A stretch of DNA of 45,841 nucleotides from Desulfobacterales bacterium (GTDB taxonomy: Bacteria; Desulfobacterota; Desulfobacteria; Desulfobacterales; JAFDHS01), in contig JAUUWG010000003.1 of NCBI GenBank assembly GCA_030589165.1, forward strand, positions 1 through 45,841. The letters run 5' to 3'. A program made the translations under genes and the position numbers. Shown piece by piece: positions 4,783 to 41,682 of the stretch; positions within the stretch are counted from its first letter, which is position 1; each line of letters starts with the position of its first letter. Under the pieces are notes generated by a model, which saw nothing but the letters and a program-made list of their open reading frames with translations, was not told the DNA's origin and did not search any database.

Positions 4783-5514
4783 ATGAAGTTTAAATTTTTT
4801 GTTGCTTTGTTTTTTGTATGCACTTTTTTTTACGCAACAGATTCCATAAGCGCAGAAAAAGAATCAATCAAATCACCTTCCACTTTTTTGTCCCGGGATA
4901 AATACGAATTTGCGCCGGTGCCGGAAGGTTTTGAGATAAAACATGATTTTATCATACAAAACAAAGGGGACGCCGTACTGGATATTAAAAAAGTCAGGAC
5001 CGGCTGAGGGTGTACGGCGGTCTCATATACGAGACAAATCCCTCCCGGCGGTGAGGGAAAGATCACTCTTAAGCTCAATACAAAGTACTATGGTGGGAAA
5101 AGACTCAAGAAAAACATCAGAGTAGAAACAAATGATAAGAATCGCCCGATAATTCATTTGACGATTTCGGGCATGGTCGAAAAATTTGCCTCCATTACCC
5201 CGAACAGAATAAGACTTGCCGGTTGTGTCGGCAAGGAGTTGAAAACTTCGGTAAGCATTATCCCTGAAAAAAAGTATCCGTTCAAAATTGTTAACGTCAC
5301 TGCAAAACAAGGGAAAAATATCCGTTACAAGATAGAGGAATTCAAAAAATCAAAAATATCGGAGTACGTATTGACCGTTGAAAACATAAAAAAAGAAATA
5401 GGCCGCTATTTCGATATTATTCATTTAAAAACAGACAGTAAAATCCAGCCGGAGATCAGCATCAGGGTAATGGGGAATATTTATGGCAGGCCCATCAATA
5501 AGACGGATAAATAG
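4783..5514 (+). CDS. Exported DUF1573-like (Ig-fold) protein, probable selenoprotein with UGA-Sec at 5005-5007 (243 aa by read-through)
   Basis: Signal peptide, then HDFIIQNKGDAVLDIKKVRTG-[TGA]-GCTAVSYTRQIPPGGEGKITL, matching the DUF1573 CGCT...IPPG motif. The frame is open after the TGA and joins ORF 5158..5514 in frame. AAGGAG RBS upstream of 4783. Confidence 0.8.
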
Positions 5515-5520
5515 GCTTTT

Positions 5521-6135
5521 ATGATGGATATTAAAGTGGTTGCTTTCGACTGCGACGGCGTCCTTTTTGATACGACACAGGCGAACACGATTTACTACAA
5601 CAGGCTCCTGGAACATTTCGGCAAACCGGAGATGACTCCTGAACAGTTCAAGTATGTCCACATGCACACCGTTGATAATGCCATTGCCCACCTCTTTGAT
5701 GATGAGAAGACACGCAAGGCGGCTAATGAATACCTTCGTAAAAATGTAAGTTATCTGCCGTTTATCAAATATATGAAGATAGAGCCGTATTTAAAGCCCT
5801 TGCTAAAAAAGCTCAAGCCCTCTTACCATACGGCCATTGCTACAAATCGCAAGGGCACGATGAACCGGATTCTTTCAGAACACGGCATTGAAAAATATTT
5901 TGACCTGGTTGTAACGGCCTTTGATGTGAAACGACCTAAACCCTGCCCGGATTCACTTGTCAATATATTGAAGCATTTTAAAGTAGAACCCCGGCAGGTA
6001 ATTTATATAGGAGATTCGGAGCTGGATGAAAAAGCGGCAAAAGCTGCCGGAATACCATTTGTAGCATACGGCGACCCCTCCCTTTCAGCGGATTTTCATA
6101 TAAAAAACCTCAAGGAGGTTGAAGAGATTCTTTAG
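5521..6135 (+). CDS. HAD-superfamily hydrolase (phosphoglycolate phosphatase-like)
   Basis: Motif I FDCDGVL, ATN, KPCP, YIGDSELD. Confidence 0.9.
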   Translation: MMDIKVVAFDCDGVLFDTTQANTIYYNRLLEHFGKPEMTPEQFKYVHMHTVDNAIAHLFDDEKTRKAANEYLRKNVSYLPFIKYMKIEPYLKPLLKKLKPSYHTAIATNRKGTMNRILSEHGIEKYFDLVVTAFDVKRPKPCPDSLVNILKHFKVEPRQVIYIGDSELDEKAAKAAGIPFVAYGDPSLSADFHIKNLKEVEEIL

Positions 6136-20982: not shown

Positions 20983-21163
20983 CCTAAGCCGGATAAACCG
21001 GAAAAGTGAGCTAAAGTTAATGAGTCGCTTCGCTCCGTCTTTTTTATATAAAATTGATAGAATACCTCACCTTTAGGCACTTTAGCTCACTTTAGATCAC
21101 TTCACACTTTTTTAAATTCAGATTTTTTTGACATAAAAAACACAAAATTCAGAATTAAGAGAC
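20983..21163. repeat. Modular palindromic repeat, copy B, with CCGGATAAACCG and CAGAATTAAGAGAC modules
   Basis: 21001-21113 is close to the reverse complement of copy A (6150-6274). 21132-21166 matches 39709-39743. Confidence 0.8.
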
Positions 21164-21349
21164 TAAGGGACTCGGCACAAATAAATTATCCCATTTAGCA
21201 TCTCCTATTCAGGCCATCTTTATTCGATACTCAATCAAATCGTCCTCGAAATAGTACGACTATTCCTGTGGCGATTAGATTTCGGATCGAATAAATCTGA
21301 CCTGAACATGAGCACTATCTGGGACACTTTATTCGTGCCGAGTCCCTTA
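21164..21349. mobile_element. 186-bp MITE-like element forming a full-length imperfect palindrome
   Basis: 22-bp terminal inverted repeats TAAGGGACTCGGCACAAATAAA / TTTATTCGTGCCGAGTCCCTTA (1 mismatch), with nested internal inverted repeats. A second highly similar copy starts at 45688. Confidence 0.85.
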
Positions 21350-32224: not shown

Positions 32225-34210
32225 TTACATTGACGAAACCATTTCCAGAGGCAGTTTATCTGCATGTGCCTTGGTATAGTAGTTGTAAAAAGCTTCAACA
32301 ATCTTTTCATCAAAGTGGATGCCGCTTTGCTTCCATATCAGCTCAAATGCTGCTTCAAGGGGCATCGGATCCCGATAGTGACGCTTGGCGGTGATGGCTT
32401 CAAAAACATCTGCCACGGCAATTATCCTGGCACCCAATGGTATCTCTTTACCCTTGAGGCCTTTCGGGTAACCGCTTCCGTCAATTTTTTCGTGGTGCGC
32501 ACCGGCAATTTCAGGAACCTGGCTGAAAATCCCTTCAAAATTGATCTGTTCCAGAATTTTCCTGGTTTTTTCGGCATGGGTTTTTACGATTTCGTACTCT
32601 TCTTCCGTCAGTTTTCCCGGTTTTTTCAAAATTGCATCCGGAACCCCTATTTTACCATAATCGTGGAGCAATGCCGCCACCCGGATCATTTCACTCTCAT
32701 CCTCGGGAAGCCCCAATTCATTACATATTCCTAAGGTGTATTCAGTGACCTTTTGAGAATGGCCTGCTGTCAGAGGATCCCTGGCATCGATACTGGCGGC
32801 CAGAACTTCTAAAATTGATCTGAATTGCCGCTCCCTGGCTTCCAGGAGTTCTCCATTGCGGATACTGATCCCTATAGTAGGCGCTATCCCCATCAATAAA
32901 CTCAAGTCGCTCTGGAGTAGTGGTCTTTTTGATTTCAGATTGTCTACCACAAGAACCCCAATCGACTCTCCATCACAGATAATTGGACAACAGACAAACG
33001 ATTGAGTTCCCAGTTTCTTTGCAAACACCAGACTCCGCAGTGAAAGATCATTTTCTATCTCTTCAATGTTATTTATCAAAAACGGCTTCTGTTCCCGAAA
33101 TGAAACAACAAAAACCCCTTTTGATTCCGGCCTGTCCAAATGGAAAGCCATCTTTTTGAGAAACCTGAGCTGATCGTCCGTATAGCCGTACCCCACCCGG
33201 AACATCAGCTTGGTTTTTTCCGAATTTGCCAAAAGAATCATGCCCCGGTCATAATCGAGCCGATTCCGTGAAATCTGAATAACATTTGCTAAAATATCTT
33301 CGATACTTGTTTGCCTGCTGATAGCCTGTCCTATCTCATTGGTCATAAGAGCATTATTATAGTTAATTTTGATGTGTTCAAGCAGCTCGTCAGATGCCCC
33401 CATGAGGTTGTCCAGACTGGCTTTCAACTCCTTGTTTTCCATGCTTACGCCAATTAAGATCAATCCAAGAACAATAATGATTGAAACCGGCAAAAAGATC
33501 TTCAGTATAACAAATGGAGAGATAAAGATGGAAATCAGGCAAGTCAAAAAAAGAAACAACGCAGTGTAATTTGTTATTTTCTTCCATAAAAAAGAAAACG
33601 GGTTTTCCCAGGAAATTATGTAACGGCAGATATTTCCGCCTTTGAACATGCATTCCGGATGTTCAATTCGTGGCGGAGTGTTGGTAAAAATCATTGAAGC
33701 AGCATCAAAAAATCCCATTCTGTTTTCACATTGAAAAAGTCTTTCAATAACTCCCTCATTCGGTGTAACGGTAATCTCAACCTTATTGGAAGTTATTTTC
33801 CTTGATTTACAAATTGATGATTTAGTGAAATTAGAAGTTGCTTTTCCTATTGTTTCATATACATTCGCCGGGCTCATCATACCCAGAATGTACTGCCTCA
33901 TTACCCCTATAGCTTCGGGGGAAGCCGCGTATCGGCCTGCCTCCCGGGCAATGTTCTTATTACCGGTTACCTGTACAAGCCTTTCGTAAAACAGATTTAT
34001 CTGTTCCTGGGTAAACCAGTGCCCCTGATCGGCAACCTCGTATGGCTTCATTTTGGCGGAACTTAATAATTCGGTTATGTTTACATGGCTGTATTTTCTT
34101 TTAATAAGCTTAATATACGTATCTATTATTCTGCTGCTATACAGGGGGATGTTTTCTTTATCAGACAGTATCTTCACGGCAGTACCTGAAAAAATTACAA
34201 AAAAATTCAA
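32225..34210 (-). CDS. Membrane-anchored HD-GYP cyclic-dinucleotide phosphodiesterase with V4R-like N-terminal and GAF domains
   Basis: DARDPLTAGHS, LLHDYGKIG, HHEKIDGSGYP, ARIIAVADVF; GAF segment (CCPII...IGVLVVDN); two hydrophobic helices; N-terminal CENRMG...IEHPECMFKGGNICRY. The start codon is uncertain. Confidence 0.88.
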   Translation of the reverse strand: MNFFVIFSGTAVKILSDKENIPLYSSRIIDTYIKLIKRKYSHVNITELLSSAKMKPYEVADQGHWFTQEQINLFYERLVQVTGNKNIAREAGRYAASPEAIGVMRQYILGMMSPANVYETIGKATSNFTKSSICKSRKITSNKVEITVTPNEGVIERLFQCENRMGFFDAASMIFTNTPPRIEHPECMFKGGNICRYIISWENPFSFLWKKITNYTALFLFLTCLISIFISPFVILKIFLPVSIIIVLGLILIGVSMENKELKASLDNLMGASDELLEHIKINYNNALMTNEIGQAISRQTSIEDILANVIQISRNRLDYDRGMILLANSEKTKLMFRVGYGYTDDQLRFLKKMAFHLDRPESKGVFVVSFREQKPFLINNIEEIENDLSLRSLVFAKKLGTQSFVCCPIICDGESIGVLVVDNLKSKRPLLQSDLSLLMGIAPTIGISIRNGELLEARERQFRSILEVLAASIDARDPLTAGHSQKVTEYTLGICNELGLPEDESEMIRVAALLHDYGKIGVPDAILKKPGKLTEEEYEIVKTHAEKTRKILEQINFEGIFSQVPEIAGAHHEKIDGSGYPKGLKGKEIPLGARIIAVADVFEAITAKRHYRDPMPLEAAFELIWKQSGIHFDEKIVEAFYNYYTKAHADKLPLEMVSSM

Positions 34211-34235: not shown

Positions 34236-36302
34236 TTAAAAGTCAAGTTCCATTTTCCGAAAACCCGAGAATTTAATCATATGTTTAAGGCATCTGAAAT
34301 AATGATCCGTATACTGCATATCCAAAACCCACAGGTTATATATTTTTTCATGAGATAGTGACAGATTCTCTGCATAAGTTGCAGGATATAAAAGCACGGG
34401 CATTTCATCCTCCTCGATTTTTTCAGAAACGGCTGAGAGTATCAACTGAAGGGTATCACCGGAAAGCTCCTCCGGATTCAGGACAAAAACATTGATGCAA
34501 TTGGTCAGATCAGACATGTTCAAGCCGATATCCGAGATATTTACCATGATGATGGCCTTAAGACTGCCGTTCTCTTTCAATGAGAAAAGATGTCTTTCCC
34601 GTTTAAAACCCAACCGTTGATATTCCTTTGAGATTTCATCCAGGTCAAGCATGTCCGGCTCCAGATTGAGGGCCCGAATCATAAGCCCTCCCGAATGATG
34701 CTCGTAAAAACTTTCCAGTTCCTGGAGGTCTTCGGACCGGGTTTCAGTCAATCTCCACAGCCCTGGCATATCCGCTTTACTACGAAGTATTCTTCGAAAA
34801 TTAAAATAGACAAAGGTATCAATAGAAGATCCCTTTGCATTTTTTATATTTTGGGTAACCGTTCCAAAAACACGGCTGGGGAATTTATTATCAGGCCTGA
34901 AAAAACAGAAAACAAAATCCATATGCATGGAAAAAAGACGATGGGAATCATTTATAAACCCTCCCATCTGGTTCAACACAACCAGTCCGGCCTTGTGGCA
35001 GACGGAGCTTCTGGCGGCATGGTGATGAAGAAGCCATGAATTTTGATAAAAACGTACCATTGCCATATGTCCCAAAATACAACCTTTATCCTGATATATG
35101 AAATGTCTGGCGATGTTCGGATTCTGGGTGTAAAGTTTTTCATAGGTTTTTTTGATTTCCTCTTTGTTTTTCTGAATATACGAATATTTTTCCGGATAAA
35201 TAAAACCTGTTTCAAAAAAGAAATTCCACAGATCGTCCAGATCCACCTTGTTGCAGATGTAAGAATTCCTGTTTTTTACCTGATCCAGAAGACTTAGAAG
35301 CCTGACATGATCCTGAATGTCCATATCAAGAATAAACAGACCGCATTTTACCAAATTGTTTTCTTCCCCTTCACCGCAACTCCGACAAACAACCTGAGCC
35401 TTGCATTTGATCTCGAAGCTGTTCGCAAAGCTCAGCGCCAACTCGGGTATGATCATGCCCGCTAAAAGAACGGCGTTGTTCTCGTCTTCTTCTACCGAAA
35501 AACCAGAACCAGACAGCTCGAGAACCTTCAGGTTAACCATCTTTATAGTAAAAGGGTGTACAAAAATAATATTTGGCGAAGGGATCAGTTTATGTCGTGT
35601 ACTGCGGAATTGCTTGGGTTTAAACCTTTGTATCTCATGACATAAAGGTTCCAGTACATAGTCTCGCGTTTTCTGTGAAGAAGTTTGCCTGACTATCCTG
35701 CATTCTCCGGAATAAAGCGTCTCAGAGCCATCAGAAAAAACGAGGTTTACCGGGAATTCAGGATTAATCCACTGAAATGTCTGGGGGGGAGCTGTCGATA
35801 GTTCGATACGGAAGGAAACGGCGCTAAAATCTATGAGAACGCCATAAAACGACACGCTGTTTTGAAACAAAGATACATTTATGCCTTTGCATAAATGCCT
35901 TTTCACTTTTCGGGAACTGATTTCGTAGCATTTTTCCGGGAGATTGAGGCTGATGCCCTTCGCGCTTATGCTTTTCATTTCAGCCTTCACCAAAAGAAGA
36001 TTTTGGCCGTCGTTGACGAGAAGATTTTGGAATTCATACGATTTCAGTTTCTGATCAAGCCCGTCGGTTTCTATCCAGACACATTCCAAGCAGTCGTCGT
36101 GACAGGGCTGCAATTCGGCATGGAGAGAAATTGTGTTGTTATATTTTTTGTGTTTGAGGTTTATGAGGACAGTGCCGTCCTGGAAATTAATGTAGTTTAG
36201 TTTATTGATTAAATTTTTTTTACTGACCGACTTCCTTGTTTCCTGTTCACTCTCTTTGTTGATTGTGCTGATAACTTGAGGAATTCCCTGCCTGTCCCAC
36301 AT
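34236..36302 (-). CDS. Tandem-PilZ-domain protein with a C-terminal acyltransferase (GNAT)-like region
   Basis: RKVKR...DFSAVSF and RSTRH...ELSGSGF PilZ-type motifs. C-terminal LWNFFFETGFIYP...ILGHMAMVRFYQNSWLLHHHAA region; the GNAT assignment is tentative. AGAGG RBS. Confidence 0.72.
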   Translation of the reverse strand: MWDRQGIPQVISTINKESEQETRKSVSKKNLINKLNYINFQDGTVLINLKHKKYNNTISLHAELQPCHDDCLECVWIETDGLDQKLKSYEFQNLLVNDGQNLLLVKAEMKSISAKGISLNLPEKCYEISSRKVKRHLCKGINVSLFQNSVSFYGVLIDFSAVSFRIELSTAPPQTFQWINPEFPVNLVFSDGSETLYSGECRIVRQTSSQKTRDYVLEPLCHEIQRFKPKQFRSTRHKLIPSPNIIFVHPFTIKMVNLKVLELSGSGFSVEEDENNAVLLAGMIIPELALSFANSFEIKCKAQVVCRSCGEGEENNLVKCGLFILDMDIQDHVRLLSLLDQVKNRNSYICNKVDLDDLWNFFFETGFIYPEKYSYIQKNKEEIKKTYEKLYTQNPNIARHFIYQDKGCILGHMAMVRFYQNSWLLHHHAARSSVCHKAGLVVLNQMGGFINDSHRLFSMHMDFVFCFFRPDNKFPSRVFGTVTQNIKNAKGSSIDTFVYFNFRRILRSKADMPGLWRLTETRSEDLQELESFYEHHSGGLMIRALNLEPDMLDLDEISKEYQRLGFKRERHLFSLKENGSLKAIIMVNISDIGLNMSDLTNCINVFVLNPEELSGDTLQLILSAVSEKIEEDEMPVLLYPATYAENLSLSHEKIYNLWVLDMQYTDHYFRCLKHMIKFSGFRKMELDF

Positions 36303-36744
36303 CTTTTTACCTCTTTAGTTAAAGAATATCGACTTGCTTTTGGCTTGTGCGTTTTGATTTTGGACATTTGCTGAGGAGTTGTTGAAAAATGCCTAACATT
36401 CTGGTTGCAATGGATTTGAATTGATCCCAGCGCAATAGTAAATATTTTATCTCTGGAAAAAGCCGCAACTGTTTTTAGTCCCTTATATGAAAGCCCATAA
36501 AGTGCATAGGTAAGGTATTAAGTCATTTTAACCAGACTATGAGCGACTTCTCAATAAGTCCGGGCGGCTCAAATTAAAGGAGTAGAATGAAAAACAATTA
36601 CTCGAATACAGTTGAGATAGTTAAAAATTTAATAAAATGCAACTCCAAATCGAAGACAAAGAAAAAAAGTCGGCATTCATCACATGTTAGAATTAAATTG
36701 CCCGAGATTATTAAAAACTTGTCTGCGCGCCTTACTTATTTCGT

Positions 36745-36773
36745 TTGACACCCAACATGCTATTACTTATATT
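36745..36773 (+). promoter_or_regulatory. Sigma-70-type promoter for the TAXI-fusion/DUF2491/pspA-like cluster
   Basis: TTGACA-N17-TATATT, about 110 bp upstream of the 36882 start. Confidence 0.65.
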
Positions 36774-36881
36774 TATTCAAACAATCGGCTTTTCGGCGCC
36801 TTAACATAATAAAATTTTGCGTTCGGTAAAAACATCAAAGCAAACAGAAAGGAGAACACCTTTCATCATTAAGGAAATATA

Positions 36882-38630
36882 ATGAAAAAAAAGATCGTTA
36901 TTTGTCTTGCCGTCTTACTGAGTTCAGCTCTTTTAGTTAGTGATTATATTTTGACAACTGAAGATGCCTGGGCCGGCCGTTCCCGGTCAAGTTTCAGTAG
37001 ATCCGGCTCATCCTTCAGCCGATTGAGTCCCAGCAGAAGCGTCTGGGGCAGCAGGAGTGGAGGAGGAATATTCAAAAAAACATCCAGCTCGTCAGGATAC
37101 GCAAAGCCCTCATCTTCAAAAAAATCCTATAAATACGCCAAGCCCAAGTCTGCCGTTCCAGGTTCCACCTCGTCCAAGAAATACAAAAAACCCGATAAAG
37201 CCGCATCTTCTGGTTCAGGCGGTTACGCAAAACCGAAAAAATCTTACACGGCATCGTCGTTTTCTGGAACAAAATACGACCGAAAAAAAATAAAAAAAAT
37301 CCGGAAGACCAAATCCGCTCAATCTTTAAAGGCCTATAAGGCGGAAAAGGCTAAATATAAAAAATCCGCATCCAAACCGGATCCGAAACAGTTCAGATCG
37401 AGTCCCATATACAATAAAACCCAAAGATACGGGTCCTTTGATTACAACGATCACTATACCCGACGAAACGGTTATTACCATGGTATGGGCTGGTCCATGC
37501 CTTCCTACGGCTATCTTTCCAGACCCGGTTTCGGTATGTGGGACGTTATGTTCTGGTGGATGATTCTGGATCATGTCGGAAACCGCAATTATGCCGCGAC
37601 CGCATATCACCATTCAAATGATCCGGGCTATAAGGAATGGCGGGCCGAAGCCGAAAGACTTGCCGAAGATAATGCTCAGATCAGGGAGAAACTGAAAAAA
37701 CTCGATCAGGAAACCGCATCCATGCGAACTCCCCGTGATCCGGGTTATCTACCTTCAGGCGTTCCAGCCGAAGTCGCCCTTGCGGCCGATGTCATGGCCT
37801 CAAAAAAATCCGAACGTCCCCTACTCCGTATGGCAACCGCTTCAAAAACCGGAAATTATAATTATTTCGGAACGAAACTGGCCGGGTATGCCGAAGGCGT
37901 AAACGTTGAACTCCGCAACAGCAACGGCTCCATGGAAAATCTGCGGCTTCTGATGAATGATGAAGTAGACGCAGCCCTGATCCAATCCGACGCCTTTGCC
38001 GTATATCAAAAAAAGTTTCCGAATTCACACCTTATATCCGAACAAACCGTTTTGTACAAGGAAGCCGTACAGATGATTGCAAACAAAAAATCAGGTATCA
38101 AGTACGTCGATGATATCGATCCGGACAGACATTTCCTTATTGTGGGTCCCAAAGGCTCAGGGACGGCATTGACATGGGAAGCATTTTGCATGGAGGACTC
38201 CGGTTATCGAAAAATAAGAACCATGAACATGGCCTACCCAAAAGCCTTAAAAGAGGTCGAAAAAAATCCTGACGCGGTTATGATGTTTGTTTCCGGGCTA
38301 AACAGTCCGCTCCTCAAAGAGGCCGAAAAAATGGCCGGTGAAACGAGTAACCTTCGTCTGGTTGCAGTGGACGACTGGGATTTCAACGATACATTGGATC
38401 AAAATGGAAACAGGGTCTATACATTCACCACTATCCCCACATCGATTTATCCGAATTTGCAAAAAGGATTTATTTTCGACAGAGATATTGAAACTCTTGC
38501 CGTCGATTCGGTACTTGTGGTCCGTACCGACTGGGTCGAAAAATACGGTGTCGAAGCAATGGACGCCTTGTCTTTTGCCGTTATGGAAACCCAGCCTCAT
38601 GTGGCTCGCCGGGTCCAGGGGCTGGAATAA
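36882..38630 (+). CDS. Secreted fusion: Ser/Lys-rich low-complexity region, aromatic/hydrophobic segment, coiled coil and TAXI-type solute-binding domain
   Basis: Signal peptide ending AWA; YAKP-type repeats; FGMWDVMFWWMILDH. From about residue 311, TAXI motifs LRMATASKTGNY, SNGSMENLRLL, DAALIQSD, LYKEAVQMIA, VGPKGSGT. Confidence 0.8.
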   Translation: MKKKIVICLAVLLSSALLVSDYILTTEDAWAGRSRSSFSRSGSSFSRLSPSRSVWGSRSGGGIFKKTSSSSGYAKPSSSKKSYKYAKPKSAVPGSTSSKKYKKPDKAASSGSGGYAKPKKSYTASSFSGTKYDRKKIKKIRKTKSAQSLKAYKAEKAKYKKSASKPDPKQFRSSPIYNKTQRYGSFDYNDHYTRRNGYYHGMGWSMPSYGYLSRPGFGMWDVMFWWMILDHVGNRNYAATAYHHSNDPGYKEWRAEAERLAEDNAQIREKLKKLDQETASMRTPRDPGYLPSGVPAEVALAADVMASKKSERPLLRMATASKTGNYNYFGTKLAGYAEGVNVELRNSNGSMENLRLLMNDEVDAALIQSDAFAVYQKKFPNSHLISEQTVLYKEAVQMIANKKSGIKYVDDIDPDRHFLIVGPKGSGTALTWEAFCMEDSGYRKIRTMNMAYPKALKEVEKNPDAVMMFVSGLNSPLLKEAEKMAGETSNLRLVAVDDWDFNDTLDQNGNRVYTFTTIPTSIYPNLQKGFIFDRDIETLAVDSVLVVRTDWVEKYGVEAMDALSFAVMETQPHVARRVQGLE

Positions 38631-38730
38631 TTAATTAATGCCCGCCCGGAAAGGGAATGGGCATCATTGATGACAAAAGATACAAGGGCACTCAATGTAA
38701 CAACATAATTATAATAATCGGAGTAGATGA

Positions 38731-39450
38731 ATGAATAGCTCGTGGCGGATATTCAAGGCAGTAGCCGCTAAAAAAGCCGAAGGTGTCAAGGATCTTTTTA
38801 AGCGGGAAAAAACAGCAAAACCTGTTGATCGGGATCTTCCCTTAGGCCTTCACATCAACGGGAAAATACTTTTGGATCAAACACCTTTTCTCCTCTGGGA
38901 AGATAAGATGACCGTGGTGTTTCCGGGCAAAGCGCAGCAGGTTGCGGCTTACGGAAAGGCAACGATCGGGGATTCGTATCTGCACAGATTTTACCTTGTC
39001 TCAGATGATGGTCGAAACGAAGAGTCCATGCTCCAGATTACCTGTGATATGAAAAACGATATCCGGGAATGCCGGCTCTTTCGATCCATGGATGAAGTTG
39101 TGCCGGAAAGCCAAGAGGATTGGGATTTCTGGTTGAGCGAAGAAGACGGATCTATAGGCTGGCAGGCCTTCGAGAGCAAAGAAGGGGTTTTATACGATCG
39201 AGCCTGGGATGACAGCGCGGATGACCATGTTCTTCCGATTGGGTTTGAAGAAACAGTCTATGCGGACAGCGCGGGCGAAGATAATCTCAAAATCTCCCAC
39301 GACGCCATGCTTTACGGCAGGTGGATCAACAAAGACGATGAAACTGCAGAATATATCCTCCTTTCGGCAGAAGACCATGGTGATACTGCCTTTGTTCATA
39401 TAATGGCCGGAATCGATATTAATCCCGCATCGATAAAGACGGTCTACTAA
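38731..39450 (+). CDS. DUF2491 (YjfK-like) family protein
   Basis: LPLGLHING, AYG...IGDSYLHRFY, LQI, LF....EVVP...W..WL....IG, YDRAW, H.AMLY.R, EYILLSAE, GIDI.P motifs recognised by eye; GGAG RBS. Confidence 0.75.
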   Translation: MNSSWRIFKAVAAKKAEGVKDLFKREKTAKPVDRDLPLGLHINGKILLDQTPFLLWEDKMTVVFPGKAQQVAAYGKATIGDSYLHRFYLVSDDGRNEESMLQITCDMKNDIRECRLFRSMDEVVPESQEDWDFWLSEEDGSIGWQAFESKEGVLYDRAWDDSADDHVLPIGFEETVYADSAGEDNLKISHDAMLYGRWINKDDETAEYILLSAEDHGDTAFVHIMAGIDINPASIKTVY

Positions 39451-39619
39451 ATTCCTTGATTTATAACGTATTCGATCAGTAAAAAACATCTCTTGGATGT
39501 TTGTATTGTCTTTAATGTTGCGTTTAGATATTCAAATTTTATAAATCAGCCTGTTCGGTTCCGACTTGTCCGGTCGGGATATGACTTGAAATGATCAAAT
39601 AACAATATTAAAGTTGTTT

Positions 39620-39743
39620 GCCACAAAGTCACTAAAGCACAAAGTAATTCTTTTCTTTTTTTCTCTTCGTGTCTTAGGGTCTTAGTGGCGGAAAGAATTA
39701 TTTTTTACCATAGAAAGCACAAATTTCAGAATTAAGATACTAA
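39620..39743. repeat. GCCAC...GTGGC inverted repeat plus CAGAATTAAGATACTAA module
   Basis: GCCACAAAGTCACTAAAGCACAAAG pairs with CTTCGTGTCTTAGGGTCTTAGTGGC; a half copy lies at about 6983-7008; the 3' module matches 21132-21166. Confidence 0.7.
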
Positions 39744-39755
39744 GGAGTTATAACA

Positions 39756-40523
39756 ATGGCATTTTTTGGTTTTATCAAGAATTTCGGCAAACAGAAAGTA
39801 CAGCAGACAGGACAGAGCATCGTTCAGATATTGGCAACCTGGGACCCGGATACCTCATCGGCGGCAGAGATCCAACAGATGGAAGAAAGACTCGACAAAC
39901 TGACCCAACAGGTTGCTCAGGCCAAACAAACCTATCAGAAAGAACAGAAAGAAGCCGACGCCATAGAAGCTTTATACGAGCAGCGTTTAAAGGCGGCTGA
40001 AATCCTTCAGGCCAGGCTTTCGGAAGGGGGAGAAAACAGTGCGCAGGTGGAAAAAGCCCTGACAGATCTTGTCAAGGGACTGGAATCCATGCAGCCCGAT
40101 ATCGAGCGGGAGATGGAAGAGGCCGGGGAAGCCAAAGCATTTATGGAGGAGTTGGAAGAGGTGGCCGGGGTTGCCGCTGAAAAACTCAGAAACGGCCGTA
40201 AAACCCTTGAAGCGGCAAAACGGGATATGGCTCGGGCAAAGATACGTGAAGAAAGAGCAGAAGATAAGACGGAACACACAGCAATGCTTGCCGGACTGCG
40301 CAATGAAACCGATCAACTCGGAAGTGCCCTTGCTGCAATGCGCAAGGAGACTGAAAAATCCAATGTCAAGGCCGAGGCCATGAACCTGAAAACCAGGTTA
40401 CTTGCTCCCACAAAAGAAGAAAAGGGTGATACTCTGATTGCCGAAGCCATGGCCCAGGCTTCAGGCGGATCGGCAAAACCTGCAAATATCGCCGATCGTC
40501 TGGCCGCTTTAAAGAAAAAATAA
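39756..40523 (+). CDS. PspA/IM30 (Vipp1/ESCRT-III-like) family coiled-coil protein, YjfJ-like
   Basis: Amphipathic N-terminus MAFFGFIKNF, WDP motif, long Ala/Glu/Lys coiled coil, C-terminal ADRLAALKKK; AAGGAG RBS; follows the DUF2491 gene. Confidence 0.75.
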   Translation: MAFFGFIKNFGKQKVQQTGQSIVQILATWDPDTSSAAEIQQMEERLDKLTQQVAQAKQTYQKEQKEADAIEALYEQRLKAAEILQARLSEGGENSAQVEKALTDLVKGLESMQPDIEREMEEAGEAKAFMEELEEVAGVAAEKLRNGRKTLEAAKRDMARAKIREERAEDKTEHTAMLAGLRNETDQLGSALAAMRKETEKSNVKAEAMNLKTRLLAPTKEEKGDTLIAEAMAQASGGSAKPANIADRLAALKKK

Positions 40524-40564
40524 TATCGCCTTACGTTCGTTTTCCTTTTCATTGGAAACTTCCG

Positions 40565-40598
40565 GGACAGCATCTTGATTATCAGGATGCTGTCCTTT
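40565..40598 (+). terminator. Probable intrinsic terminator of the pspA-like cluster
   Basis: GGACAGCATCTTGAT-T-ATCAGGATGCTGTCC hairpin followed by TTT. Confidence 0.7.
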
Positions 40599-40799
40599 CA
40601 TTGATTTCCAACCCATTGAACTCCTTTTTCTTTTTCAAACACGTCCAATGTCTTTTTCAATGTAATTTTGATGGCTTAGTAAAAACTCAAAAAGCCAGTC
40701 CCAAATCGGATCGACAGAATGTGTGGCACGATCACCTTGATTCAGAAACCTATATATTGCGGTAACGATTCAAGAGCAGAACCAATAGGAAACCCTGGA

Positions 40800-41216
40800 A
40801 TGAAACCATGGCTGCTTTATTCAATTGTTTCGATGTGTATCTGGGGGGTCTGGGGATTTATTGGAAAGCTGGCGTCCCGCTCCGTAACCTCTTTTAACCT
40901 GCTTCTACTGGCTTTTCTGGGCAGCCTTATGGTGTTGCCCATCTCCTTTGCAATCTTTTCCAAACATTTCAAGTTTTTGTGGCAAAACACCGATTATTAC
41001 CTTGCGCTGATCACCGGAATTTTGGGGACAACCGGAGTATTGTTTTTTTATCTTGCCTTATCAAAAGGAGAGGCTTCACGGGTCGTGGTGATAACTGCAA
41101 CATATCCGGTCATTACCGTAATCCTGAGCCGCCTTTTTCTTCACGAGTGCCTCACAATCCCAAAATTTTTTGGTGTTTTGTTTGTCCTGTTAGGTATCTA
41201 TTTATTGTCACGTTAA
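40800..41216 (+). CDS. EamA/DMT-family small membrane transporter
   Basis: WLLYSIVSMCIWGVWGFIGK, FYLALSKGEASRVV.I.A.YP, FLHE.LT; the ATG at 40800 is preferred over 40719. Confidence 0.88.
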   Translation: MKPWLLYSIVSMCIWGVWGFIGKLASRSVTSFNLLLLAFLGSLMVLPISFAIFSKHFKFLWQNTDYYLALITGILGTTGVLFFYLALSKGEASRVVVITATYPVITVILSRLFLHECLTIPKFFGVLFVLLGIYLLSR

Positions 41217-41325: not shown

Positions 41326-41682
41326 ATGGAGATGGATATGGATATAAAAGTCGTTCTTCATGTAGACTCGGATATGGAAGAGAGGCTTGCCATGGCGTTG
41401 AACAATATAACCAACTTATTAAAAGAGGTAAGCCACGAACAAGCATCCGTTTATTTGCTGATTAACGGGCCTGCCGTAAAATTGCTCCGTAACAACCGGA
41501 TTTATGCCGACAAGTTCAACAAACTATCAGATATCGGCGTACGCTTCCTGGTTTGTAACAACTCTTTGACCAAAACCGGGATTGATAAAGACGAGCTGCC
41601 TGATTCCTGTGAGGTTGTACCTGCCGGAATTTTAGAACTCATTCGGCTGCAGAACAAAGGATGCGCCTATGTTAAACCTTGA
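41326..41682 (+). CDS. DsrE/DsrF-like family protein
   Basis: KVVLHV, ALNNITNL, NGPAV, FLVCNNSL, VPAGILELIRLQNKGCAYVKP. The start could be 41332 or 41338. Confidence 0.88.
   Translation: MEMDMDIKVVLHVDSDMEERLAMALNNITNLLKEVSHEQASVYLLINGPAVKLLRNNRIYADKFNKLSDIGVRFLVCNNSLTKTGIDKDELPDSCEVVPAGILELIRLQNKGCAYVKP

Follow-up and report, generated by a model that had tools for sequence, protein, structure and literature searches.

PspA, Vipp1 and their relatives constitute the bacterial branch of the ESCRT-III superfamily of membrane-remodeling proteins, and to our knowledge the cues that tell PspA-type proteins where to act are known for few systems. Which cue a divergent PspA-like protein might receive, and through which partners, is the question raised by a three-gene locus on contig JAUUWG010000003.1 of a Desulfobacterales metagenome-assembled genome (MAG; 2.17 Mb, 247 contigs, 64.6% complete). 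The whole stretch of DNA analyzed, 45.8 kb in length, is called the window below; the locus consists of three co-oriented open reading frames (ORFs) in it:

36882–38630, plus strand: gene 1, an ORF of 582 amino acids (aa)
38731–39450, plus strand: gene 2, an ORF of 239 aa
39756–40523, plus strand: gene 3, an ORF of 255 aa

A preliminary description of this DNA had read the three genes as a secreted TAXI fusion, a DUF2491-like gene and a PspA/IM30-like gene, and had proposed that an extracytoplasmic solute-binding sensor signals through DUF2491 to a PspA polymer. What it observed was confirmed, whereas its interpretation was supported only in part. With a probability of roughly 55%, we infer that the trio is an envelope-maintenance module, in which a cue received outside the cytoplasm by a domain of gene 1 that we designate g1N, together with the TAXI domain where there is one, would be relayed by DUF2491 to a PspA-like polymer that stabilizes the membrane.

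A word-indexed search with gene 3 returned 69 homologues, approximately 250–280 aa long except for two shorter ones, which carry the name "hypothetical protein" or, from JGI, "chromosome segregation ATPase." An exhaustive profile search enlarged this family to 675 representatives at E ≤ 0.001, 266 of them at E ≤ 1e-30. Using hhalign, we compared an alignment of 208 family sequences with a PspA alignment composed of E. coli YjfJ and 16 ORFs that scored above the PF04012 cut-off in genomes of the same phylum. The two alignments matched with a probability of 97.0% (E 7.9e-11). The match extended across 222 columns, beginning at the N-terminal helix and ending at the C-terminus, and the invariant D30-P31 of the gene 3 family was aligned with the "DP" of PspA. 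Among the controls, reversed alignments gave 3.8% and 3.9%, seven independent column shuffles gave at most 0.2%, and eight block shuffles gave at most 6.3%. A hidden Markov model (HMM) of the 17 PspA sequences detected 36 of the 208 family members at E ≤ 10, the best at 6.6e-8, in a small search space.

The fold predicted for gene 3 points in the same direction. Its AlphaFold2 (AF2) model has a mean predicted local distance difference test score (pLDDT) of 72.3, with block means of 83–93 over residues 41–170 and low values at both ends. The predicted helices (residues 7–27, 36–90, 95–185, 191–215, 226–235, and 245–253), of which residues 36–185 form a hairpin, fit the order seen in PspA, namely, alpha0, a hairpin of alpha1 and alpha2/3, and then alpha4/5. 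The five best PDB matches of the model in a Foldseek search were Vipp1 assemblies (249–258 columns, E 0.015–0.034). This profile–profile and fold evidence shows the predicted protein to be homologous to PspA over its full length and sustains the earlier PspA/IM30-like assignment, the curated models being negative. Judged from sequence and model, gene 3 therefore belongs to the PspA/IM30 superfamily (ESCRT-III) as a separate family beyond the reach of the curated model; by analogy with its relatives, the protein may bind membranes via alpha0 and assemble into rings or rods. In at least one genome with this family, complete according to its record title, the Pfam model of PspA finds no other match at E ≤ 0.001. 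Other genomes of the phylum contained two ORFs (L099, 1435–2181, minus strand, 248 aa; L103, 1477–2166, plus strand, 229 aa) with weak PF04012 matches of 21–25 bits, one of them nearly full-length. Considered as members of the gene 3 family, both were rejected, as neither matched the family HMM; further divergent PspA-like families may exist.

The assignment of gene 2 is more direct. It matched DUF2491 (PF10679) with 127.8 bits (gathering score, 25; E 4.2e-37) over profile positions 4–210 of 210 and shares 25% identity with E. coli YjfK (E 5e-11); together with the TAXI match of gene 1 (88.3 bits, see below), these HMM results agree with both of the family names proposed earlier. Hydropathy analysis detected no hydrophobic segment in gene 2, and in the family alignment its N-terminal helix bears a conserved basic motif, WxLxKxIGxKK. 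The E. coli cluster that contains yjfK consists of yjfI, yjfJ (PspA), yjfK (DUF2491), yjfL (DUF350), yjfM (DUF1190) and yjfC (ATP-grasp). PspA (YjfJ), DUF2491 and DUF350 are described as operon partners, and a "third group" of CesT/Tir–PspA operons, to which the E. coli cluster belongs, is distinguished, in the main text of Ravi et al. 2024 (PMC11237479), while the passages of PMC12492005 that deal with yjfIJKL present these genes as uncharacterized and up-regulated in heat-evolved E. coli.

Gene 1 is the component in which the proposed cue would be received, and it can be divided into four parts:

36882–36974, plus strand: signal peptide (aa 1–31), ending in AWA before G, with the cleavage site placed by eye
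36975–37388, plus strand: low-complexity region (aa 32–169), rich in Ser, Lys, Gly, Tyr and Pro, with repeated GGY(S/A)KP-like motifs
37389–37781, plus strand: core of g1N (aa ~170–300), a conserved helical extracytoplasmic domain that belongs to no known family
37782–38630, plus strand: TAXI-family solute-binding domain (aa 301–582), assigned with TIGR02122, NMT1_3 and Foldseek

The only hydrophobic segment of gene 1 spans aa 1–26 (Kyte–Doolittle score, 2.32). An AF2 model of aa 150–582, based on 43 sequences, reached a mean pLDDT of 91.1 and a predicted template modeling score of 0.75, and the block means of g1N (model residues 1–150) were 83–97. This domain, approximately 130 residues long, had no Pfam match; its profile found only designed coiled coils in the PDB, its best score against the Atlas was 0.83, which is below the meaningful level, and a word-based homologue search with it returned only five close matches. 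When gene 1 was compared with E. coli YjfM (DUF1190) by BLAST, only low-complexity matches were obtained.

To place these domains in a wider context, 80 loci were fetched from a species-representative genome collection by two peptide patterns of the gene 3 family and sorted by BLAST with the window's proteins and E. coli YjfI–YjfC. Their gene contents were as follows:

52 of 80 loci: g1N+TAXI, DUF2491 and gene 3, in the window's order
1 of 80 loci: g1N+TAXI, DUF2491 and gene 3, cut by a contig end
14 of 80 loci: g1N and DUF2491 in a single protein, followed by gene 3, with a DUF350 match between them in 13
2 of 80 loci: DUF2491, DUF350 and gene 3, cut before the fusion gene
2 of 80 loci (Wolfebacteria): g1N alone, DUF2491 and gene 3
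1 of 80 loci: DUF2491 and gene 3, gene 1 being absent although 8 kb upstream are available
1 of 80 loci: DUF2491 and gene 3, with the upstream part cut by a contig end
7 of 80 loci: gene 3 alone

Conservation of the trio had been set as a test by the preliminary description, and the first two lines give the result, 52 complete loci and one cut; the trio occurs in the same order across several phyla. The g1N domain was kept in 68 of the 80 loci. The fused form, with 16 loci of an alphaproteobacterial type, was found in Azospirillum, Acetobacteraceae, Rhizobium-like MAGs and related genomes. Three fused proteins matched the Pfam model of DUF2491 within their C-terminal half, and for one of the three the following gene matched DUF350. 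DUF350 was confined to this form (15 loci by BLAST, one of them confirmed by Pfam). The RefSeq annotation of A. lipoferum 4B agrees (DUF2491 and DUF350), with gene 3 as a "hypothetical protein." One contig labeled Mycobacteriaceae (L057, CAZTNV010000065.1) also carries g1N-DUF2491, DUF350 and gene 3, which may reflect a binning or labeling error or gene transfer. When ORFs of at least 90 aa were clustered, no further family occurred in more than 17 of the 80 loci, apart from antisense ORFs over the trio. The gene 3 family occurs patchily: of the 41 genomes searched (the window's own and 40 relatives of the same order), two have it, the second being from the same genus.

Five of the seven lone gene 3 copies are extra copies in assemblies that also have DUF2491 with gene 3, four of these with the full trio. 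In Desulfomonile-like MAGs, lone copies (L039:7046-7699, L051:3456-4112, L055:7031-7687 and L066:6804-7460) lie approximately 300–520 nt 3′ of a conserved 218-aa ORF, which has several hydrophobic segments and no Pfam match. The idea that this ORF is a DUF2491 protein was discarded (hhalign, 0.3%); by analogy with LiaI and LiaH, the ORF may encode a membrane protein that partners the PspA-like protein.

The different forms of the locus indicate how the module may be arranged across the membrane. According to hydropathy and alignment, all forms begin with a signal-type segment, followed by a low-complexity region and then g1N; an alignment of the N-terminal parts of gene 1 revealed a similar low-complexity region in all three architectures. 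In the fused form, a hydrophobic segment (score 2.2–2.9) and then RRR or a similar basic run lie between g1N and DUF2491, and the g1N protein of Wolfebacteria ends in a C-terminal hydrophobic segment. From the positions of the signal-type and transmembrane segments, g1N and TAXI would therefore lie outside and DUF2491 inside. The fusion of g1N, a transmembrane segment and DUF2491 is, as far as sequence can tell, a natural "Rosetta stone" that ties the outside part to DUF2491. The basic N-terminal helix of gene 2 sits where the fused form has its transmembrane helix, and this helix may serve as a peripheral membrane anchor. In the gene 1 proteins of Saccharibacteria (L080:5318-7123) and Verrucomicrobiota (L059:632-2476), a hydrophobic segment follows TAXI; the window's gene 1 has none there. 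Because three architectures exist (fused, g1N alone and TAXI-bearing), the core of the module is g1N, DUF2491 and the PspA-like protein. TAXI, which is missing from 18 loci (the 16 fused-form loci, 2 of them cut before the fusion gene, and the 2 in which g1N stands alone), is by the same sequence comparison a lineage-specific input and not a universal sensor. The earlier proposal of an extracytoplasmic sensor tied to DUF2491 thus gains support from the fusions, except that the conserved partner is g1N and not the TAXI domain.

In the envelope-maintenance module that we propose, g1N, with TAXI where present, would stand outside the cytoplasmic membrane and report a cue from the envelope or a solute; an amino-acid-like ligand is probable. 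DUF2491 would be located at the cytoplasmic face, held by its basic N-terminal helix in the window and by a transmembrane helix in the fused form, and would act as a membrane-proximal adaptor or regulator that transmits the cue. The PspA-like protein would then be recruited to, or released onto, the membrane, bind it via its N-terminal helix, and polymerize, stabilizing or remodeling a damaged bilayer as PspA, LiaH and Vipp1 do.

Several observations weigh against this proposal, most of them concerning gene 3. It has no PF04012 match at E ≤ 0.01; a six-frame search of the genome with PF04012 gives nothing at E ≤ 0.001; and the 25 families most commonly matched by 30 members of the gene 3 family at E ≤ 1 do not include PF04012. 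Against NCBIfam, gene 3 gives only weak SMC/Rad50 coiled-coil matches. The gene 3 family profile finds no PspA or Vipp1 chain among the PDB sequences (best E 0.36), and when E. coli YjfJ served as the only template for the family, hhalign gave 0.4%; this template was too weak and was replaced by the PspA alignment described above. None of the 500 listed Foldseek matches of the gene 3 model reached E ≤ 0.001, and long coiled coils readily match one another. As to the other two genes, the window's gene 1 (past its signal peptide) and gene 2 both have no membrane span, so that in the window's form one cannot see how a signal would physically cross the membrane. Other contigs of the window's genome carry genes for TAXI-type permeases, and the RNA-library contigs that match the trio may hold DNA and derive from relatives rather than from the window's strain. 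Binding among the three proteins, membrane binding and polymerization are all deduced; a complex prediction with the gene 3 and DUF2491 alignments scored 0.00 in a run without controls, which counts neither for nor against an interaction.

The nature of the cue depends on the TAXI domain. Over aa 301–554, gene 1 matched TIGR02122 (TRAP_TAXI) with 88.3 bits, which exceeds the cut-off of 84.35, and also Pfam NMT1_3 (1.9e-17). The best seven PDB matches of its model in Foldseek are all TAXI binding proteins (E 4.6e-15 to 1.5e-13), and the TAXI matches include VcGluP, TtGluBP and the Ehrlichia "immunogenic protein." In the part of PMC11574862 that describes the VcGluP binding site, S75 contacts the alpha-carboxyl group of glutamate, and Y45, Q93 and E125 contact the ligand amino group, with Y45 and Q93 as key determinants. 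We mapped these residues by aligning the gene 1 family profile with the VcGluP chain in HMMER; the numbering offset of the chain, 28, was set from the landmarks V44-Y45-Y46 and H123/E125. Y45, S75, Q93 and E125 correspond to Y326, S350, Q368 and E394 of gene 1, and among 38 TAXI-bearing proteins, Y326, Q368 and E394 are conserved in all and S350 in 34; the mapping covers these four residues, the domain-2 contacts Y200 and M201 being unaligned. Given the conservation of all four, the TAXI pocket appears to be under selection in a way that fits an amino-acid-like ligand, and such a ligand is probable on these sequence grounds. Gene 1 thus resembles VcGluP (VC0430) and TtGluBP in its TIGR02122 match, in its TAXI fold (TM-score normalized to target, 0.62–0.66) and in the four pocket residues. 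Unlike them, it has its TAXI domain preceded in the same polypeptide by a signal peptide, a low-complexity region and g1N, and no fused QM permease is adjacent.

A stronger form of the preferred reading, in which TAXI and g1N sense an amino-acid-like solute or the state of the envelope and, via DUF2491, control the place and time of assembly of the ESCRT-III-like polymer, would amount to ligand-gated membrane remodeling; we consider it less likely than not. Its main rival is a two-sided structural repair device that carries no ligand signal, with gene 1, through its basic low-complexity region and g1N, acting directly on the outer face of the cytoplasmic membrane or on the wall, the PspA-like protein acting on the inner face, and DUF2491 as a mechanical coupler between them. 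The conservation of g1N and the low-complexity region on the outside, the dispensability of TAXI, and the joining of outside and inside in one polypeptide in the fused form would all suit such a device, and E. coli-type operons likewise encode, alongside PspA and DUF2491, both a DUF1190 lipoprotein and a DUF350 membrane protein. The retention of the TAXI pocket residues in 34–38 of the 38 proteins speaks for selected ligand binding and so against it, and we consider the purely structural device rather doubtful.

If the TAXI pocket does bind a ligand, gene 1 could instead be a decorated substrate-binding protein for a distant TAXI–TRAP permease, with uptake (for example, of glutamate in osmoadaptation) co-regulated with membrane protection; the conserved ligand-contact residues are compatible with this. 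The preliminary description had called the TAXI protein an orphan, noting that the window has no TRAP membrane subunit. The window indeed lacks one, and the four TRAP permease matches in the genome are all on other contigs; nor is a TRAP permease linked to the trio in any of the 80 loci. The term orphan is nevertheless weakened by the presence of TAXI-type permeases elsewhere in the same genome, namely, two fused permeases, one at the edge of contig C5 (561.6 bits), with its partner unseen, and one on contig C163 (445.2 bits). The latter already adjoins a canonical TAXI protein of its own, which scores 332.3 bits versus 89.6 for gene 1. Among five trio-bearing genomes, a TIGR02123 permease above the cut-off is present in three and absent from two, both Desulfoluna, whereas canonical TAXI proteins are present in all five and score more than 290 bits versus approximately 90 for the gene 1 proteins of the same genomes. 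In the loci, moreover, TAXI is always fused to g1N, which elsewhere is fused to DUF2491 or stands alone. Because no permease is linked to the trio and the Desulfoluna genomes have no TIGR02123 match above the cut-off, transport through a distant permease is unlikely to be the general role of gene 1, although such a permease could use gene 1 in the window's own genome; as an account of the module, this explanation seems improbable to us. In Desulfoluna spongiiphila, a canonical TAXI protein lies 11 kb from the trio, also with no adjoining permease. Its ORF (L118, G161:C13:203000-214500, ORF 4860-5876; NMT1_3 at 271.8 bits) sits between an aminotransferase gene and a DegV gene and is a second kind of orphan TAXI protein.

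Comparison with the E. coli cluster bears on the part played by DUF2491. The module resembles yjfIJKLMC in that a gene of the PspA superfamily lies beside a DUF2491 gene, with DUF350 added in the alphaproteobacterial form. In contrast to yjfIJKLMC, it has the opposite gene order, a PspA-like protein from a separate family missed by PF04012, and the g1N domain, fused to TAXI or DUF2491. The assembly, at 64.6% completeness, has no match to GSP-synthase, DUF350 or DUF2170 (PF09938), the last being the YjfI/CesT family, and BLAST found no YjfI homologue in the 80 loci, which is a weak test; no DUF1190 protein was found in these loci either, by BLAST with E. coli YjfM alone.

According to the main text of PMC11237479, DUF2491 is predicted to be an enzyme. 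The module might accordingly modify an envelope or polyamine-linked substrate, with TAXI capturing the substrate and the PspA-like protein as an accessory. In the family alignment, the polar residues R157, E174, R197 and E207 of DUF2491 are invariant and R86 and D121 are nearly so, which speaks in favor of this scheme. Against it, TAXI would lie outside the cell and DUF2491 inside; furthermore, neither an ATP-grasp ligase nor a GSP-synthase gene is encoded in the window's genome, as the preliminary description had remarked for the window with respect to glutathionylspermidine synthase, and BLAST with YjfC finds none in the 80 loci. We judge the enzymatic scheme to be quite improbable.

The preliminary description also stated that it did not recognize this architecture as described. 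A full-text literature search for DUF2491 returned only PMC11237479, in two versions, in whose text "TAXI" does not occur, and its supplementary tables might list the family; the statement holds for that text, these tables aside. Publications joining TAXI, PspA and "TRAP transporter" were, as far as their indexed text goes, unrelated works only.

A role in the response to phages or toxins, also suggested in the preliminary description, would be in keeping with the "phage shock" name and with a patchy distribution (the family is in 1 of the 40 relatives' genomes). The searches gave no support to a phage response. PADLOC gave no match for genes 1 and 2 and, for gene 3, only two weak coiled-coil matches to JetC (E 0.004–0.006), none of them credible; there was no homologue of gene 3 among 50,697 phage records; no defense genes are conserved beside the trio; and the window's flanking genes have housekeeping or signaling functions. 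Matches in a plasmid collection were restricted to Azospirillum, Bosea and Indioceanicola replicons of 0.5–2 Mb. A defense system is therefore, in our estimation, very improbable, and we return to envelope maintenance as the preferred reading.

The trio is flanked by two divergently oriented genes upstream and a short EamA-type gene downstream. The upstream genes are at 32225–34210 (minus strand; 661 aa, with an HHExxDGSGYP motif that by eye is of the HD-GYP type) and 34236–36302 (minus strand; 688 aa). Downstream lie a gene for a half-size EamA-family membrane protein with a single EamA domain (40719–41216, 165 aa) and one for a DsrE/DsrF-like protein (41326–41682, 118 aa). Neither the two upstream genes nor the downstream ones (EamA, DsrE-like and a 249-aa protein) recur beside the trio in the other loci, the downstream genes having been compared by BLAST over the 80 loci.

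The following sequence features lie around and between the three genes:

36745–36773, plus strand: sigma-70-like site, TTGACA-17-TATATT, matching 11 of 12 consensus positions, 109 nt 5′ of the gene 1 start codon
39524–39578, plus strand: conserved spacer block of 55 nt, a possible regulatory site
39610–39745 (39579–39745 when delimited more widely), no strand assigned: one copy of a ~130-nt intergenic repeat that is dispersed in the assembly, here interrupting the gap that separates gene 2 from gene 3
40564–40596, plus strand: hairpin with a 15-bp stem and a 3-nt loop, followed by TTCATTGATTT, a likely terminator

The near-consensus promoter site and the strong hairpin around the three co-oriented genes are thus as first described. 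In a scan of the region, promoter-like sites as a class were not enriched (15 observed versus 12.0 ± 3.1 expected); matches of at least 11 of 12 positions with 17-nt spacing numbered 2 in the window versus 0.28 expected, and 3 of 100 shuffles reached two. The site at 36745–36773 is a putative promoter by its likeness to the consensus. The hairpin has a folding energy of −30.2 kcal/mol (z = −6.65), and none of 200 shuffles was as stable. Its T tail is short and interrupted, which is why a consensus terminator scan passed over it; the hairpin is likely to be a terminator. By reading, each of the three genes has a purine-rich ribosome-binding sequence approximately 8 nt 5′ of its ATG, and a search of 36200–40800 with Rfam gave nothing at E ≤ 1.

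The gap between genes 2 and 3 is 305 nt in the window, compared with a median of 30 nt in 53 related loci, 35 of which have at most 33 nt. The gap is long because a copy of the dispersed repeat has been inserted, adding approximately 160 nt; this copy is missing in the same-genus relative (L005) and in a DNA contig of sequencing run X3, and it probably lies outside the three-gene system. The repeat has 41 other matches across the assembly (74–97% identity), and it also occurs at 21124–21168 of the window. Within the repeat lies a long, imperfect inverted repeat, although the folding energy is ordinary (z = −0.38). On the 5′ side of the inserted copy, the 55-nt block differs from L005 at only two positions in a pairwise DNA alignment in which the flanks have diverged, and this block may act on gene 3 as an internal promoter or a regulatory site.

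The stretch is present in sequencing runs from sediment, estuary, mangrove and wetland; we did not name a habitat from runs with small word shares. RNA-library contigs from two wetland metatranscriptome studies match parts of all three genes at 90–99% identity. One of them spans the end of gene 1 into gene 2, and a single 847-nt contig corresponds to 39751–40597, beginning just 5′ of gene 3 and including the whole hairpin. These contigs leave, for example, 39461–39601 uncovered, which counts neither for nor against transcription; they may include DNA and cannot prove transcript ends, and transcription of the trio is only hinted at by them.

The proposed arrangement has parallels among better-known systems. 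In PspA–PspBC–PspF and LiaI–LiaH, an ESCRT-III-like effector is combined with membrane partners that sense envelope stress and recruit or release the effector. In the present module, DUF2491 would take the place of the membrane partner and a secreted multidomain protein that of the sensor; no PspB, PspC, PspF or LiaI homologue turned up, no HMM search having been aimed at these families. In LuxP–LuxQ and TorT–TorS, periplasmic binding proteins serve as sensor inputs that feed histidine kinases. They share with gene 1 the use of a solute-binding fold for signaling, which is the role proposed here for TAXI, and differ in the downstream partners, which in the module are DUF2491 and the PspA-like protein instead of histidine kinases.

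The gene 3 family is a newly recognized and sizeable PspA-like family, with 675 representative clusters at E ≤ 0.001, and the module can be regarded as a variant of the yjfJK-type PspA/DUF2491 systems with g1N as a new extracytoplasmic partner domain. Its fixed partners, DUF2491 and g1N, give a testable wiring diagram for the uncharacterized DUF2491 and, by extension, for E. coli yjfJK, and because the module is present in cultivable, non-pathogenic bacteria (Azospirillum, Desulfoluna and Maridesulfovibrio), the predictions can be tested. Should ligand gating prove true, this would be the first ESCRT-III/PspA-type machine with a solute-binding-protein input, and DUF2491 would be an adaptor that links the cell exterior to PspA-family proteins, including the E. 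coli pair YjfJ/YjfK.

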